From contig CACXNV010000001.1 of NCBI GenBank assembly GCA_902769185.1, forward strand, positions 4,021 to 68,020: a DNA stretch of 64,000 nucleotides. The letters run 5' to 3'. The translations under genes were made by a program, and so were the position numbers. The number at the start of each line of letters is the position of its first letter. Positions within the stretch are counted from its first letter, which is position 1. Source of the DNA: an uncultured Erysipelotrichaceae bacterium. GTDB taxonomy: Bacteria; Bacillota_I; Bacilli_A; RFN20; CAG-826. The notes below the pieces were generated by a model. That model had not been told where the DNA came from. It worked only from the letters and a program-made list of their open reading frames with translations, and made no database searches. This document shows, in pieces, positions 21,080 to 56,046 of this stretch.

Positions 21080-21091
21080 TTAAACAAAATA

Positions 21092-21128
21092 ATTAACTGC
21101 TTAGATTAATTTCTAGGCAGTTTTTTAT
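21092..21128 (+). repeat. Direct repeat copy 1 (37 nt, includes the rpoC terminator)
   Basis: attaactgcttaGattaatttctaggcagttttttat recurs at 21853-21889 with one mismatch. Confidence 0.9.
21097..21126 (+). terminator. rpoBC operon terminator
   Basis: An 8-bp stem (ctgcttag / ctaggcag, with one G.U) with loop attaattt, followed by T6. Confidence 0.7.
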
Positions 21129-21209: not shown

Positions 21210-21455
21210 ATGTGCAATGTAAACATGTATGAAGCCAAAACGAATTTGTCGAAATACGTTGATATGATTGAAAGTGGTGAGCAAAAAGAAATTTTCTTAT
21301 GTCGTAGAGGCAAGAAAATAGCAAAAATCGTTCCTGTTGGTGAAGAATTAACAAAAAAACGATTAGGTGCTGCGATTGGAATTTTACCTAGCTTACCAGT
21401 TGGATTTGATGATCCAAAATTAGATGAAGAGATTGCTAATGACTTTAATTTATAA
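21210..21455 (+). CDS. Type II antitoxin, Phd/YefM-like
   Basis: MYEAKTNLSKYVDMIESGE..I...RGKKIAKIVP is typical of Phd/YefM N-termini. Its stop overlaps the PIN gene start (TAATG). Confidence 0.7.
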   Translation: MCNVNMYEAKTNLSKYVDMIESGEQKEIFLCRRGKKIAKIVPVGEELTKKRLGAAIGILPSLPVGFDDPKLDEEIANDFNL

Positions 21456-21850
21456 TGGAATACTTATTAGATACGAATACTCTTTTAAGAGCGTTATTTA
21501 ATGATGAGAAAATATCAGATAAAACCAGAAGCATTATCGCCAATGAGAAAAATCAAATTTTTGTTTCTATTGTTTCCATCTGGGAAATTGAGCTCAAACA
21601 TAATAAACACCCAGATTTAATGCCATATAATGCAAAAGATATCATTAACGCTCTTGTGTATACTGACTATATCGTTTTACCAGTTAGATATGAATATTTA
21701 GTAGAGCTTAAACAAGTAATTGATTTAAATATTCATAAAGACCCATTTGATCATCTACTAATTGCAACTGCGTTAGAAGAATCTATGACATTAATTACAA
21801 GCGATGAAACAATTCTAAAATATCCAATAATCTCAACATTAAAATTATGA
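21455..21850 (+). CDS. vapC: PIN-domain toxin (VapC-like ribonuclease)
   Basis: LLDTN.LL at the N-terminus, IWEIELK, DPFDHLLIATA and LITSDE, which supply the conserved acidic PIN residues. 131 aa. Confidence 0.85.
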   Translation: MEYLLDTNTLLRALFNDEKISDKTRSIIANEKNQIFVSIVSIWEIELKHNKHPDLMPYNAKDIINALVYTDYIVLPVRYEYLVELKQVIDLNIHKDPFDHLLIATALEESMTLITSDETILKYPIISTLKL

Positions 21851-24479: not shown

Positions 24480-24519
24480 TTTTGACTAGAAATTATTTTT
24501 ATTTTTAAGTTTTGATGTA

Positions 24520-24598
24520 TGCCAAAATGGCAAATTTACATAAATTATAATATGCCAAAATGGTAACTTTAATGTTGACAAGATATGCCAAAATGGTA
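24520..24598 (+). promoter_or_regulatory. Three phased palindromic operator boxes overlapping the MNT/HEPN promoter
   Basis: TGCCAAAATGGCA at 24520, and TGCCAAAATGGTA at 24553 and 24586, with exactly 33-bp spacing. TTGACA at 24575-24580 lies between boxes 2 and 3. Confidence 0.55.
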
Positions 24599-24610
24599 AA
24601 TTATAAGTGT

Positions 24611-25078
24611 ATGAATTTAGTAGAGATTAGAAAACGTAATGGATTAACACAAAAAGAAGCGGCGACTATGCTCGGCATTCCATATCGTACTTATATCCGC
24701 TATGAAGAAAATGAGACGTATGCGGACTCATATAAGTATAAGATGATAACTGAAAAACTTTATGATTTATTAAAAATCGATGAAGAACACGGCATATTAT
24801 CATTAGATAAAATAAAAGAATTATTGCTTCCAATTTTAAAATCAAAAAATATTGCAAAATGTTATCTATTTGGCAGTTATGCACGTAATGAGGCAAGAGA
24901 AAATAGTGATGTCGATTTACTTATAGATACAAATATTACAGGATTAGATTTTTTTAACCTAGCAGAGGAAATGAGAGTTGTATTAAAGAAAAAAATCGAC
25001 TTAGTTAGGCTAAAAGATCTACGCGCTGATAACCCGATTATCTTAGAAATATTGAAGGAAGGTATTAGATTAATATGA
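24611..25078 (+). CDS. XRE-type HTH fused to a minimal nucleotidyltransferase (MNT antitoxin of a HEPN/MNT pair)
   Basis: IRKRNGLTQKEAATMLGIPYRTYIRYE (HTH_3), then YLFGSYARNEARENSDVDLLID (GSxx...DxD NTase motif). The track start at 24560 lies inside operator box 2, so I prefer the ATG at 24611. Confidence 0.8.
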   Translation: MNLVEIRKRNGLTQKEAATMLGIPYRTYIRYEENETYADSYKYKMITEKLYDLLKIDEEHGILSLDKIKELLLPILKSKNIAKCYLFGSYARNEARENSDVDLLIDTNITGLDFFNLAEEMRVVLKKKIDLVRLKDLRADNPIILEILKEGIRLI

Positions 25079-25419
25079 TTGAACAAACAGATTATAGAAT
25101 TATCTCAATGATGATTGAAAAAGCGAATAGAATAATAGAAATCTATTCAAAAAATGGAAGAGATAGAATTCAAAATGAATATATTCTTAGCGATGCATTG
25201 CAATTCGAATTTGAAAAAATGTATGAAGATAGCACTAGGCTTTCTGTTGAATTTAGATTAAATCACCCTTGGTTACACATCGATAAGCTAAGAGGAATAC
25301 GAAATCGAGTTGCCCATAATTATGAAAGTGTAAGTTTAAGCATTTTGCTTGATACAGCAGAAAATGATATTCCTATACTAAAGCAGTTGCTTGAAAAAGC
25401 GCTAAATGAAAAAGAATAA
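25075..25419 (+). CDS. HEPN-domain (DUF86) toxin
   Basis: R-x4-H motif in RGIRNRVAHNYESV, 114 aa, and an ATGA start/stop overlap with the MNT gene. Confidence 0.8.
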   Translation: MIEQTDYRIISMMIEKANRIIEIYSKNGRDRIQNEYILSDALQFEFEKMYEDSTRLSVEFRLNHPWLHIDKLRGIRNRVAHNYESVSLSILLDTAENDIPILKQLLEKALNEKE

Positions 25420-28879: not shown

Positions 28880-30064
28880 ATGGCAAAGGAAAAATTTGAC
28901 AGATCTAAAGAGCACGTTAACATTGGTACCATTGGTCACGTTGACCACGGTAAGACCACATTAACCGCCGCTATTACAACTGTCTTAGCAAAAAAAGGCT
29001 TATCTGAAAAGAAAGCATACGATCAAATCGATGCTGCTCCAGAAGAAAAAGCTCGTGGTATTACAATTAATACTGCCCACATTGAGTATCAAACAGAAAA
29101 AAGACACTATGCACACGTCGACTGTCCAGGTCACGCTGACTATGTCAAAAACATGATTACTGGTGCTGCTCAAATGGATGGTGCAATCTTAGTTGTTGCC
29201 GGTACTGATGGCGTTATGCCACAAACTCGTGAACACATCTTACTTGCTCGTCAAGTCGGTGTTCCTTACATCGTCGTCTTCATTAACAAGACTGACTTAG
29301 TCGATGACCCAGAATTATTAGACTTAGTTGAAATGGATGTCCGTGACTTATTAAATAGCTATGGCTTCCCAGGAGATGAAGTCCCAGTGATTCGTGGTTC
29401 CGCTAGAGCCGCTCTTGATGGAGATCCAAAAGCTGAAGCTGCAATTATGGAATTAATGGATGCATGTGATACCTATATCCCAGCTCCAACCAGAGATACC
29501 GATAAACCATTCTTACTCGCTATCGAAGACGTTATGACTATTTCTGGACGTGGTACAGTTGTTACTGGCCGTGTTGAAAGAGGTACTGCTAAACTCGGTG
29601 ACGAAGTGGAAATTGTTGGTATTAGAGAAACTCAAAAATCAGTTATTACTGGTCTTGAATCCTTCAGAAAAACTTGTGACTTTGTCCAAGCTGGTGATAA
29701 CGTTGGTGTCCTTTTAAGAGGTATCAACCGTGATCAAGTCCAACGTGGTCAAGTTCTTGCAAAACCAGGAACCGTTACTCCACACACCAAATTCAAAGCT
29801 TCTGTTTACGTTTTAACCAAAGAAGAAGGTGGCCGTCATACAGCTTTCTTAAGCAACTATCGTCCACAATTCTACTTCCGTACAACTGATGTTACTGGTG
29901 TTATCACTCTTCCAGCTGGAACCGACATGGTTATGCCAGGCGATAACGTTGAATTAACCGTTGAATTAATTCACCCAATCGCTCTTGAAAAAGGTACCAA
30001 ATTCTCCATCCGTGAAGGTGGTAGAACCGTTGGTGCTGGTACAGTTAACGAAATCGTTAAATAA
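28880..30064 (+). CDS. tuf: Elongation factor Tu
   Basis: [40 protein letters not shown]. The ATG at 28880 follows AAGGAG; the track start at 28859 is an upstream extension. Confidence 0.98.
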
Positions 30065-30083
30065 TTTAGTTAACGTATTAATC

Positions 30084-30112
30084 AATTAGGAGATTCTTCG
30101 GAGTCTCCTTTT
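30084..30112 (+). repeat. Direct repeat copy 1 (29 nt, includes the tuf terminator)
   Basis: aattaggagattcttcggagtctcctttt is identical to 30642-30670. Confidence 0.92.
30088..30112 (+). terminator. tuf terminator (UUCG tetraloop hairpin)
   Basis: aggagattc-TTCG-gagtctcct, 9 bp with one G.U, followed by ttt. Confidence 0.8.
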
Positions 30113-30143
30113 ATTTATCTAAAATAAAATATATAATAAAAAC

Positions 30144-30632
30144 ATGAATGTTGAAGAAGCAAAAGAAAAAGTCAAAAAACGTGAAGATGAGACTACTAAC
30201 GCTGCCATTGAAGTAATGATTGATTCATTTAATGAACAGGATGAACCGATGGTTGGCCCTTTTTGGTATGATCCTGATAAAAAAGAAATATACGGACAAG
30301 TAGTTGCATTAGCAAAAGATAGACCATTTTATTATTCGCATTCTTGGAATAAAGAAGTAAGAACTGGTTCTGCTCTTCATAAATCAATTTGGGAAAGAGA
30401 ATATTTTAGGCACAAAGATCATAGATTTTCTGGAGATTATACTCAAAAACCAAGAGGTAGAGTGTTTGAATTTAAAGATGAAGGATTTAAAGTGTTTGTT
30501 GGCGAGTGGATAAATAAATATCCAGAGGCAAAAGATGAAATATTATTTGAATTTCAGCTTCCTAAAGATAACACAGAATTTGTAATTGATGAACACTGGG
30601 ATATTGGACACGGTTGGAGTCAAGAATTCTAA
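30144..30632 (+). CDS. Hypothetical 162-aa protein; I recognised no family
   Basis: Long ORF with host-like codon usage and a Trp/His-rich sequence (GPFWYD, HSWNKE, HWDIGHGW). It is bracketed by duplicated tuf terminators. Confidence 0.55.
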   Translation: MNVEEAKEKVKKREDETTNAAIEVMIDSFNEQDEPMVGPFWYDPDKKEIYGQVVALAKDRPFYYSHSWNKEVRTGSALHKSIWEREYFRHKDHRFSGDYTQKPRGRVFEFKDEGFKVFVGEWINKYPEAKDEILFEFQLPKDNTEFVIDEHWDIGHGWSQEF

Positions 30633-30641
30633 AATATGATA

Positions 30642-30670
30642 AATTAGGAGATTCTTCGGAGTCTCCTTTT
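30642..30670 (+). repeat. Direct repeat copy 2 (duplicated tuf terminator)
   Basis: A perfect 29-nt copy of 30084-30112. Confidence 0.92.
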
Positions 30671-30725
30671 TTGTTGAGATGATTATGTTTTATTTATAAA
30701 ATGATTTTAGAAAGGAGACATAACT

Positions 30726-31031
30726 ATGAATCAATATGAAAATTGTACATTCATGATTGATTATCAACTTAAAAAAGAAGTATATCCAATTCTAAAAGAA
30801 CTTAATATCTCACCTATGATGTTGATTAATTCTTTATTTTTGGAGATAATCAAAACAAGAAAAGTACCTTTTGAATCTAGATTTGAAACAAAACCACCTA
30901 TTGACTCAAGCAAATTAAGTGATAAAGAAATTATGGAACTTATTCAAGATGGTATTGATGATGTTAAAAACGGCAGAATGTATACTATTGAAGAGTTGAA
31001 AAAAATCATTGAGGACAATTTAGGGCTCTAA
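30726..31031 (+). CDS. RelB/DinJ-family antitoxin-like protein (no adjacent toxin)
   Basis: N-terminus F.ID..LK.E...IL.ELNISPMMLINSLFLEIIKTRKVPFE matches the DinJ ribbon-helix-helix pattern. The AAGGAG RBS is good, and TTGAGA-17-TAAAAT lies upstream. Confidence 0.55.
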   Translation: MNQYENCTFMIDYQLKKEVYPILKELNISPMMLINSLFLEIIKTRKVPFESRFETKPPIDSSKLSDKEIMELIQDGIDDVKNGRMYTIEELKKIIEDNLGL

Positions 31032-31051
31032 ACACAAAATTTGATTGTATT

Positions 31052-31078
31052 AAAAGGCGATAATAAAATTCGCCTTTT
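31052..31078 (+). terminator. Rho-independent terminator
   Basis: A 9-bp stem, aaaaggcga / tcgcctttt. Confidence 0.7.
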
Positions 31079-31148
31079 AATATGCTTTGTATAATTCTTT
31101 ATCTATTAATATATTTAATATAAAATATATAAGTAACGGAGATTATCT

Positions 31149-54702: not shown

Positions 54703-55125
54703 ATGCTTATTGATGAAATCAAATCTGCCAATATCGAAGCCATGAAAGCTAGAGATAATACCTCTAGAGCAGTCTTATCCATTGTCTTAACAAAATATAA
54801 ACTCCAAGAAGTGGAATTAAAAAGTCAAGGCAAGGAAATTGGTGATGCTGAATTATTATCAATTATTCAAAAAGTCATTAAAGAACTTGAAGATGAAAAA
54901 GCTGGTTATTTAAAAGTTAATAACCAAGAAAGAGCAGATAATGTCTCAAAACAAATGGAAGTTATTTCTTCTTATCTTCCAAAACAATTAAGCGAAGAAG
55001 AGATTAAAAAGATTATTGATTCCTTAGAAGACAAGAGTGTTCCTAGCGTGATGAAACATTTTAAGATGAATTACGCTGGTCAAGTTGATATGTCTCTTGT
55101 AAATAGAGTTCTTCGTAGTTTATAA
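54703..55125 (+). CDS. yqeY: GatB/YqeY domain protein
   Basis: I......AMKARD..R...L......K..E typical N-terminus, 140 aa, and an AGGAGG RBS. Confidence 0.8.
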   Translation: MLIDEIKSANIEAMKARDNTSRAVLSIVLTKYKLQEVELKSQGKEIGDAELLSIIQKVIKELEDEKAGYLKVNNQERADNVSKQMEVISSYLPKQLSEEEIKKIIDSLEDKSVPSVMKHFKMNYAGQVDMSLVNRVLRSL

Positions 55126-55305: not shown

Positions 55306-56046
55306 ATGAAAGAAAAATTTACTAATCAAATATTTGTTAACAAAGAAGATTATCAAAATGAATTTAAGTTTGATATTTGTTGGGTTATTGAAGAGTTAAA
55401 TAAACTCCCTTTTGATTTTTACATTAGTGGTGGAGTTATTTATAAGTTCTTTTTTAAAGAACACGCTAGATTTGTTAAAGACATAGATATTGTCATAAAG
55501 TGTGATTTAAAAGAAGTTGAATCAGCATTTAGACAACGTTTCAATGTTGTTAAATTTCAATCTGCTCCAATATCATATTTATATTTTTTAGAAACTTTTA
55601 TGTGCTTAATTGATGTTAATGGAAAGATTGTTCAAATAGACGGCATTAGATTAGATTTTTTTGATGAAATAAAACATATTATCTATAAAATTAATGATTT
55701 ATCATTTAAAGGAGTTTCTATAGAATATCTTATTTCAACAAAGATCGATGCTGTTACAAATGAAACTGAAAATCCATTTAAGCATTTAGTTGATACCTAT
55801 ACTGCTTCTTTAGCAGATCCTTCTTTTATTGATAAAAAAGAAATCAAAAAATATTTAGTGATATTAAATACTCAAAATAATAAAGTTAGAAAAGAATTTA
55901 AAAAATCAGAAATTCCTATAAAATTTAATATTGAACACAATAAAATCTTTACTGGGCCAGAATTTCTTCCAACTCTTCAGGCGGGTTATAACGTCTCTAA
56001 AGAAACAATGATTGAAGAAGTTAATAAATGGTTATTAACGTTTTAG
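55306..56046 (+). CDS. Hypothetical protein with a Pol-beta-type nucleotidyltransferase motif, possibly AbiEii/AbiGii-like
   Basis: ISGGVIYKFFFKEHARFVKDIDIVI (GG ... DxD), a later acidic strand (IRLDFF) and KHLVDTY. This is a weak assignment made by eye. Confidence 0.35.
   Translation: MKEKFTNQIFVNKEDYQNEFKFDICWVIEELNKLPFDFYISGGVIYKFFFKEHARFVKDIDIVIKCDLKEVESAFRQRFNVVKFQSAPISYLYFLETFMCLIDVNGKIVQIDGIRLDFFDEIKHIIYKINDLSFKGVSIEYLISTKIDAVTNETENPFKHLVDTYTASLADPSFIDKKEIKKYLVILNTQNNKVRKEFKKSEIPIKFNIEHNKIFTGPEFLPTLQAGYNVSKETMIEEVNKWLLTF

Follow-up and report, generated by a model that had tools for sequence, protein, structure and literature searches.

A 162-residue gene between two copies of the tuf terminator: an apparently old cassette at a putative insertion hot spot in uncultured Erysipelotrichaceae

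How does a single gene come to lie between two identical copies of the terminator of a very strong core operon? The question was raised by a 64-kb stretch of contig CACXNV010000001.1 from an uncultured Erysipelotrichaceae bacterium (hereafter the window, to which all coordinates without a locus label refer; L-numbers denote loci of relatives). In this stretch, one open reading frame (ORF) encoding a protein of 162 amino acids (aa) was found between two copies of the 29-nt sequence AATTAGGAGATTCTTCGGAGTCTCCTTTT, directly behind tuf, the gene of EF-Tu. A preliminary description of this DNA had treated the arrangement as a scar, and its account of the letters was exact: the two copies were identical, the ORF was the only one between them, and the motifs quoted for its product were present (Table 1). 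The window held exactly these two copies, both on the + strand, with no third at up to 3 mismatches and 0 matches in 100 dinucleotide shuffles; the match grew to 32 nt at 97% identity with starts at 30081/30639. Both copies were called as intrinsic terminators with a stem of 8-9 bp, a TTCG (UUCG) loop and a T-run (U-tract), and the predicted fold energy of the hairpin was -12 kcal/mol. The proximal copy (T1) began 20 nt past the tuf stop codon (30064), and the distal copy (T1') followed at a spacing of ~560 bp. A scan of the tuf hairpin, and of the rpoC hairpin described below, gave no match in Rfam. Since the same T-X-T structures recurred in >20 independent metagenome assemblies, an assembly artefact was excluded.

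The segment closed by T1' looks like a self-contained unit, in which a -10 box is followed by one ORF and then by this terminator copy. A TATAAT box was located 6 nt before the ATG and no Shine-Dalgarno sequence was found there, whereas tuf and the RelB and phosphatase genes further downstream had clear ones. This TATAAT-N6-ATG arrangement recurred in eight lineages, including L004, L005, L013, L016, L019, L020/L021 and L023, and two distant chromosomal homologs with other surroundings, L008 and L036, likewise had a -10-like box (TATAAT and CATAAT, respectively) 7 nt before the ATG. The promoter and terminator calls were at consensus level and the -35 region was weak; they suggest a leaderless mRNA whose putative promoter travels with the gene. 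Read-through from tuf, put forward earlier, is unlikely as the normal mode of expression, because a strong predicted terminator precedes the gene, the TATAAT lies 6 nt before the ATG and a Shine-Dalgarno sequence is lacking. The likeness to a phage moron, also proposed earlier, is in line with the predicted -10 box, the unit's own terminator copy and the abundance of the family on large phage contigs.

The site behind tuf was then compared among relatives, whose loci were obtained by homolog look-ups and by one metagenome scan using the tuf 3' end. The order tuf-T1-ORF was observed in L001, L004, L005, L013, L016, L019, L020/L021, L022 and L023. Within an uncultured Erysipelotrichaceae-like clade, 10 or more lineages have the gene after tuf. 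L020/L021 showed the same layout as the window, L019 had the ORF and the duplicated hairpin and nothing more, and L022 and L023 had in addition a short RelB gene. L013 and L001 combined the layout of the window with a different toxin-antitoxin (TA) cassette after the ORF, namely a RelB-like antitoxin gene and then an ORF that is ParE-like by eye (not scanned). L004 carried three identical hairpins in the order tuf-T1-(162 aa)-T1-(RelB-YafQ)-T1, which equals L019 plus one unit of RelB-YafQ and T1. Altogether, the ORF was accompanied by one of four different RelB-type cassettes (window; L001/L013; L004; L022/L023). A RelB gene without the ORF was found in L012, and neither was present behind tuf in L014, L015, L017 and L018. 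In L014, tuf was followed by a single T1, TTGTTGAGATGATTATG, CTTTGTATAATTC... and the phosphatase gene, so that this site was precisely empty for both the ORF and the RelB cassettes; the right flank of T1' in the window (TTGTTGAGATG...) is the ancestral flank of this lone terminator. Relative to L014, the RelB insert spanned ~30688-31084, was edged by the ~10-nt direct repeat TATGCTTTGT (clearest in L016) and was precisely absent from L014. The filled L013 and the empty L014 derive from one metagenome sample. With varied gene content between conserved genes in related strains and without a mobility gene, the locus looks like a small hot spot of gene insertion immediately downstream of a core operon.

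Two broader explanations of the repeat were rejected at this point. A common dispersed repeat, which the preliminary description had named as fatal to its view, was contradicted by the presence of only two copies in the window, by the restriction of T1 to tuf in the related loci, by its absence from the viral contigs, and by an unbiased scan of ~300 kb of related DNA in which the only hairpin-containing direct repeats were those at tuf and rpoC. A duplication tied to the downstream RelB cassette, as the first three relatives suggested, was discarded since L019 is duplicated without RelB. Two unusual alleles were also noted. In L016 (4680-5120), a mosaic 146-aa allele had its N-terminal half replaced by divergent sequence with a short deletion and a C-terminal half near-identical to that of L013, which suggests recombination inside the cassette and may hint at homologous exchange at this site. 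In L005 (6490-6520), the hairpin after the ORF was GAGTCTC-AAGT-GAGACTC. The 3' arm of T1 reappears as the 5' arm of this hairpin, so that T1' may have been remodelled here instead of replaced by an unrelated terminator.

The perfect match of the two copies invited the reading as a recent scar, and this reading did not hold. The ratio of nonsynonymous to synonymous divergence (dN/dS) of the 162-aa gene was 0.03-0.09 against seven orthologs, at a synonymous divergence (dS) of ~1. The nucleotide identity of the ORF to L021 was 82-90% vs 75-92% for downstream genes, and its composition was native-like. The gene is thus under strong purifying selection. Because it diverges in step with its flanks, is native-like in composition and lies behind tuf across lineages at dS ~1, it is an old resident, apparently present since the clade ancestor, and not a fresh arrival. 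An imported cassette allele, considered in view of a dS of ~1 against strains with 99% identical tuf, was rejected: the downstream genes were equally divergent, and tuf is simply constrained. L014 was the closest relative in downstream genes (86-94%), its fusA and rps genes were 95-98% identical, and the more distant genomes L021, L005, L004 and L001 were filled, so the empty L014 is nested among filled sites. The simplest reading is that L014 secondarily lost both cassettes by deletion between the flanking direct repeats (29 nt and ~10 nt).

If the insertion is old, why are its two terminators still identical? Purifying selection explains part of it, T1 being invariant across most lineages, including those at dS ~1 in the cassette gene. 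Where the hairpin had changed, the change was found in both copies: L001 had an extra T-A pair in both stems (9-bp stem, both copies), L022 had GNRA loops and TTTTTTGTTTTT in both copies with stems that had diverged with compensatory change, and L023 had the loops TTAG and CTAG in a repeat of 40 nt at 95% identity. The right flanks were more similar within their own genome than expected (7/720 permutations). In the window, the left flank of T1' (AATTA) matched that of T1; the sister strains L013, L016, L020 and L021 had AACA there and shared only 24-27 nt between copies. Selection alone does not keep T1' identical, because T1' had decayed in L013 (stem mismatch) and L019 (1-nt deletion). Since both copies share lineage-specific variants where the hairpin changed, short-tract conversion or re-duplication probably acts at the tuf site, and the perfect 29/29 match in the window would reflect homogenisation or constraint, not recency. 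A symmetry of the repeat extents about the hairpin dyad, which fitted the two cases in the window, was dropped when copies 2/3 of L004 were found to extend 1 nt to the left and 10 nt to the right.

The second case in the window, reported earlier as a companion to the tuf site, was verified: a terminator of 40 nt behind rpoC was present in two 95% identical copies around VapB and VapC. VapBC was found between rpoC terminator copies in >12 strains, and L005 was empty, with rpoC, a single terminator and the Zn-ribbon gene. Empty sites in relatives, anticipated in the preliminary description, were hence available for both loci (L014, L012 and L015/17/18 for tuf; L005 for rpoC), and the recurrence that it had stressed was extended by L004, where comparison with L019 revealed a third hairpin behind the added RelB-YafQ cassette. 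At least three independent events, tuf/162 aa, L004 RelB-YafQ and rpoC/VapBC, thus appear to have duplicated a whole terminator hairpin around a cassette. In L028 (785-2470), an IS30-like element (HTH_38 transposase, 462 aa) was found inside the distal rpoC terminator, at the junction of ATTATTAACTGCTTAG and TGTAACTTG; past this element, the contig runs on into a tRNA gene.

The explanation that we regard as somewhat probable is an old insertion at the tuf terminator with duplication of the hairpin, followed by repeat-mediated conversion, loss and stacking. The cassette would have entered in the clade ancestor by an event that duplicated the whole hairpin and its U-tract. T1 would then insulate the cassette from the very strong tuf operon, and T1' would halt the cassette transcript ahead of the next gene. 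Short-tract conversion or template switching could keep the copies alike within a genome, recombination or slippage between them could delete the cassette precisely, as in L014, and cassettes could be stacked, as in L004, by unequal exchange or by a further round of the original event. The primary duplication was most likely independent of a recombinase, and two routes can be envisaged: a template switch at a fork stalled by the hairpin, which would be re-copied on return to the original template, or illegitimate recombination facilitated by homology, with the highly conserved tuf or rpoC gene as its anchor.

The ORFs examined around both sites and elsewhere in the window included no integrase, transposase or other recombinase (not every ORF of the window was scanned). 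The genes around the two sites were rpoB/C, VapBC, Zn-ribbon, metallophosphatase, MNT-HepT, rpsL/G, fusA, tuf, the ORF, RelB, phosphatase, RDD proteins and an ABC transporter, and ten further window ORFs of recombinase-like size were metabolic or transport proteins. The cassettes also lack the features of a transposable element or a miniature inverted-repeat transposable element: no terminal inverted repeats were seen at their ends on reading, no transposase was found, and the direct repeats had no fixed length (~10, 29-34 and 40 nt in four events). With regard to CRISPR/casposon-type integration by Cas1, repeat duplication was seen at each insertion, and no Cas1 gene was present among the window ORFs examined. 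Of the options named earlier, hairpin-targeted insertion gained no candidate enzyme, and template switching is retained as a conjecture. The cassettes include promoter DNA that lies ahead of the transcribed part, which makes an RNA-mediated origin through complementary DNA, considered as the repeat ends near the expected 3' end of the transcript, unlikely. Phrase searches of the literature for natural terminator duplications retrieved nothing relevant.

Several observations weigh against this explanation. The mechanism of the primary insertion is inferred rather than observed, and random illegitimate recombination would be expected to give a less regular picture than three events with repeats of 29-40 nt, each covering the whole hairpin. 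The two copies equal the widely conserved T1 in most lineages, and shared purifying selection could explain much of their identity. The left flanks showed no significant own-genome excess (174/720 permutations). Repeats as short as ~25-30 nt undergo conversion only inefficiently in known systems. The rpoC/VapBC copies are not homogenised among strains and vary independently: in strains of the window's species, the proximal terminator carried a compensatory double change (G>A with C>T; L025 4641) or a loop variant (L033, L034 copy 1), and the distal copy was unchanged where the proximal one varied (L025, L033, L034). The direction of change in L014, loss vs an ancestral empty site spread by recombination, is read from a similarity ranking, which recombination could blur, and not from a rooted phylogeny. 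Termination, promoter activity and the leaderless start are predictions from the nucleotide sequence.

An integron-like capture would account for this regularity. An unlinked, trans-acting, structure-specific recombinase would use folded terminator hairpins as attachment sites and move circular cassettes of a gene and its hairpin. The L004 array, in which three identical hairpins separate two unrelated cassettes, the precise empty sites and the whole duplication of two different hairpin sequences (tuf and rpoC) all fit such a system; TA cassettes are typical cargo of chromosomal integrons, and the IS30-like insertion in the distal rpoC hairpin of L028 indicates that such hairpins attract recombination enzymes. 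We nevertheless hold it to be unlikely. No integrase or recombinase was found among the genes examined, a 29-nt hairpin without attC core motifs is far below the attC range, and the cassettes bring their own putative promoters. Moreover, the 162-aa cassette is fixed at one site with vertical divergence, only two sites were found in ~300 kb of related DNA, and the neighbouring RelB cassette has a direct repeat of only ~10 nt.

A single ancient accident would demand less machinery, and we give it a similarly small chance. Here one duplication would have accompanied one insertion, the likeness of the copies would be due to purifying selection on a stable C(UUCG)G hairpin, and the arrays and empty sites would have arisen by whole-allele exchange between strains. 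The identity of T1 across lineages at dS ~1, which shows the hairpin to be strongly constrained, agrees with this, as do the independent variation of the rpoC copies among strains, with a compensatory change in one copy only in L025, and the left flanks without own-genome excess. The derived variants common to both copies in L023, L001 and L022 and the own-genome excess of the right flanks are against it, and so is the left flank of T1' in the window, which matches T1 (AATTA), unlike in the sister strains (AACA). Furthermore, T1' tolerates a mismatch or deletion in L013/L019 and is thus not tightly constrained, and at least three independent duplicative events are needed.

The 162-aa gene could also be the toxin of a reverse-order TA pair, with the following RelB-type gene as its antitoxin. 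In most lineages the ORF has a RelB-family gene behind it, with no recognisable toxin gene after that gene in the window, L020/L021, L022 and L023, and in one homolog (P0161) a RelB fragment is joined to the domain. This pairing is very doubtful, because a complete predicted terminator stands between the two genes, as do a predicted promoter and Shine-Dalgarno sequence of the RelB gene's own, and the two do not behave as a type II TA system: the ORF occurs without RelB in L005 and L019, RelB occurs without the ORF in L012, and the ORF matches no toxin or antitoxin family (Pfam, NCBIfam, PADLOC). The RelB genes, in addition, belong to different cassettes (with YafQ in L004, and with the ParE-like ORF in L001 and L013), and most homologs elsewhere stand alone. 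Finally, a selection for safe harbours, in which random insertions survive only between pre-existing tandem terminators of strong operons, fits the position of both sites behind very highly expressed operons and the fact that every cassette is co-oriented with its operon and insulated from it, and is highly improbable given that every empty site (L014, L012, L015/17/18, L005) has a single terminator.

What does the cassette behind the tuf terminator carry? The product had been called Trp/His-rich; 6 Trp and 6 His are indeed present, and with 13 Phe and 7 Tyr it is better described as aromatic-rich. The inability to assign it to a family was confirmed: no significant match was obtained in Pfam, NCBIfam, PHROGs, PADLOC or PDB sequences, and the family has no name in the source databases. 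The profile and structure searches proposed earlier led to a conserved family and a confident model, and to neither a named family nor a structural neighbour. The family comprised 141 clusters at 90% identity and 479 representative clusters in a profile search (E<=1e-3), with many aromatic, glycine and polar columns invariant in the alignment. An AlphaFold (AF2) model built from 33 sequences reached a predicted local distance difference test score (pLDDT) of 89.6 and a predicted TM-score (pTM) of 0.79; no structural neighbour was found in PDB or BFVD, the best TM-score being ~0.3, from weak ADF-H/gelsolin-like matches.

Eleven viral contigs, 34-202 kb in length, carried homologs, as did L040 and L041, which are phage-like contigs; none was found in deposited phage or plasmid records. 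The phage loci had no constant gene neighbour, and tRNA genes lay within 4 kb of the homolog in only 4/13 of them. On the phage-like contig L040 (3700-9344), the homolog (61% identity) was inside an array of 22 tRNA genes in ~5.6 kb, near genes for an RNA ligase and a Ro/TROVE-like RNA-binding protein. On the phage contigs L044, L045, L047, L049 and L052, which carry homologs, many neighbouring proteins shared the N-terminal motif MKLRI.ES / MK.YIKS.

The domain was also found fused to other proteins: to YafQ (P0130), to YoeB (P0185, P0199), to Doc (Doc ... domain, P0132), to the RelB fragment of P0161 and, in a 616-aa Alistipes ORF (L003 4660-6510), to a MiaB-type tRNA methylthiotransferase (UPF0004 + Radical_SAM + TRAM), where it occupied the C-terminus at 34% identity. 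All of these partners act on translation or tRNA, either as TA components (YafQ, YoeB, Doc, RelB) or as a tRNA-modifying enzyme (MiaB). Tentatively, we see in the protein an accessory domain of the phage type, which may modulate or neutralise attacks directed at the translation machinery. This guess rests on few fusions, of which P0130 is a singleton, and most family members stand alone without a constant neighbour. The conservation of many polar residues, among them D43, H79, D92, R94, R104, R106, D149 and H151, makes an enzyme directed at RNA or tRNA the main alternative.

The features of both sites in the window are collected in Table 1.

Table 1. Genes, terminators and candidate signals at the rpoC and tuf sites of the window
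Feature	Position	Strand	Basis
rpoC terminator, proximal copy, 11-bp stem	21089..21128	+	repeat scan
VapB-VapC (PIN) toxin-antitoxin cassette between the rpoC terminator copies	21210..21850	+	VapB 21210-21455, VapC/PIN 21455-21850
rpoC terminator, distal copy, 95% identical, beginning at the VapC stop codon	21850..21889	+	repeat scan
tuf (EF-Tu), last gene of the rpsL-rpsG-fusA-tuf operon, conserved anchor before the cassette site	28880..30064	+	ORF, translation; GTP_EFTU domains in orthologous loci
T1, native tuf intrinsic terminator (predicted), proximal copy; stem GGAGATTC/GAGTCTCC, UUCG loop, U-tract	30084..30112	+	kept behind tuf in all relatives
TATAAT -10 box, candidate promoter of a putative leaderless mRNA	30132..30137	+	sequence; 6 nt before ATG, no Shine-Dalgarno
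162-aa ORF, uncharacterised conserved family, confident AF2 model	30144..30632	+	homologs, profile search, model
T1', distal tuf terminator copy, cassette end	30642..30670	+	repeat and terminator calls
Orphan RelB/ParD-type antitoxin gene, 101 aa, without toxin gene, own promoter and Shine-Dalgarno; second, separate cassette	30726..31031	+	domain scans, comparison
T3, unrelated terminator hairpin closing the RelB cassette	31052..31078	+	sequence
Tyrosine-phosphatase-family lipoprotein gene; directly after the tuf terminator in the empty site L014	31149..32297	+	domain scan, comparison

Further TA genes were noted. RelB-type antitoxin genes related to the 101-aa one of the window preceded the ParE-like ORF in L001/L013 and YafQ in L004. 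A third TA module between core operons (24560-25419) consisted of MNT (helix-turn-helix and nucleotidyltransferase, 172 aa) and HepT (114 aa) and was preceded at 24517-24602 by three 20-nt direct repeats with a spacing of 33 nt (ATATGCCAAAATGGTAAMTT), operator-like in look; between the Zn-ribbon gene and rpsL, L005 lacked both MNT-HepT and the gene of the 654-aa metallophosphatase. An AbiEii/DUF2204-type nucleotidyltransferase gene (55306-56046), of a type IV TA toxin family, followed a 140-aa ORF (54703-55125) and may form a further TA module.

Small accessory genes gather at hot spots beside core genes, and the route by which they arrive is usually unclear where integrases are lacking. The junctions described here are unusually legible, as three apparently independent events each duplicated an entire hairpin, and the repeats would then mediate precise loss, stacking and homogenisation. 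They suggest a natural design rule: with a terminator on either side, a foreign gene can be tolerated behind a very strong operon. The locus also draws attention to a protein family, widespread and strongly conserved, that occurs in large uncultured phages and in gut bacteria and is linked to RelE-type and Doc toxins and to tRNA biology. As a speculation to which we assign a low probability, core-operon terminator hairpins (tuf, rpoC) in uncultured Bacillota might serve as attachment sites of an undescribed cassette capture, by a trans-acting structure-specific recombinase or a hairpin-triggered replicative template switch, that would duplicate the whole terminator each time and build integron-like arrays of self-expressed phage-type and TA cassettes in the absence of an integron, with a new-fold domain countering translation-directed toxins as cargo.

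Among known systems, the locus comes closest to hot spots of horizontal gene transfer or minimal mobile elements, to phage morons and to integron arrays; of the latter two it lacks defining features. As in integron arrays, co-oriented single-gene or TA cassettes are each followed by a copy of an imperfect palindrome (in L004, each cassette by a similar palindromic site), the cassettes are individually present or absent, and the repeats are alike within an array. In contrast to integrons, the genes examined did not include IntI, no attI was seen, and the cassettes carry their own putative promoters, number one or two per site and are vertically stable. Integron attC sites measure 57-141 nt and have RYYYAAC/GTTRRRY cores, whereas the repeat here is the 29-40-nt terminator of the upstream operon; the 29-nt tuf repeat holds no GTT triplet, and the 40-nt rpoC repeat likewise lacks the cores.

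Phage morons, a concept of Hendrix and colleagues, are reportedly autonomous promoter-gene-terminator units inserted between genes. The cassette resembles them as a compact unit with a predicted promoter and terminator of its own, present or absent between syntenic genes, and of a family abundant in phages. It differs in lying on a bacterial chromosome behind core operons, flanked by tuf and by housekeeping or envelope genes, and not in a prophage. To our knowledge, a terminator copied from the host operon has not been described for morons.

The orphan-immunity arrays of the Vibrio cholerae type VI secretion system and the orphan arrays of Rhs and contact-dependent inhibition systems grow beside a conserved anchor by homology-facilitated illegitimate recombination (PMC5361080 and references there). 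They share with the present locus the entry of modules beside a highly conserved gene, the displacement of older content downstream, the lack of a dedicated recombinase and the reiteration of the end pieces of the unit. In the present locus, by contrast, it is a non-coding hairpin, a terminator, that is reiterated, the cargo bears no relation to what the anchor gene does, and the anchoring itself is a proposal.

For the protein alone, Panacea/DUF4065 offers a parallel, as a promiscuous antitoxin domain of ~150 aa that occurs in both bacteria and phages and is associated with translation-directed toxins of several unrelated kinds. Size and host range are similar, and fusions to YafQ, YoeB and Doc were observed here; unlike Panacea, the family has no Pfam match, including DUF4065, most of its members stand alone without an adjacent toxin, and neutralisation is here only a guess.

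In Neisseria, minimal mobile elements are cassettes between conserved genes that are exchanged via transformation and flanking homology. We know of no description of them as bounded by duplicated terminators. The site behind tuf shares with these elements, whose name occurs in PMC2649163, a position between conserved genes that is occupied in different strains by different whole-gene cassettes, without mobility genes.

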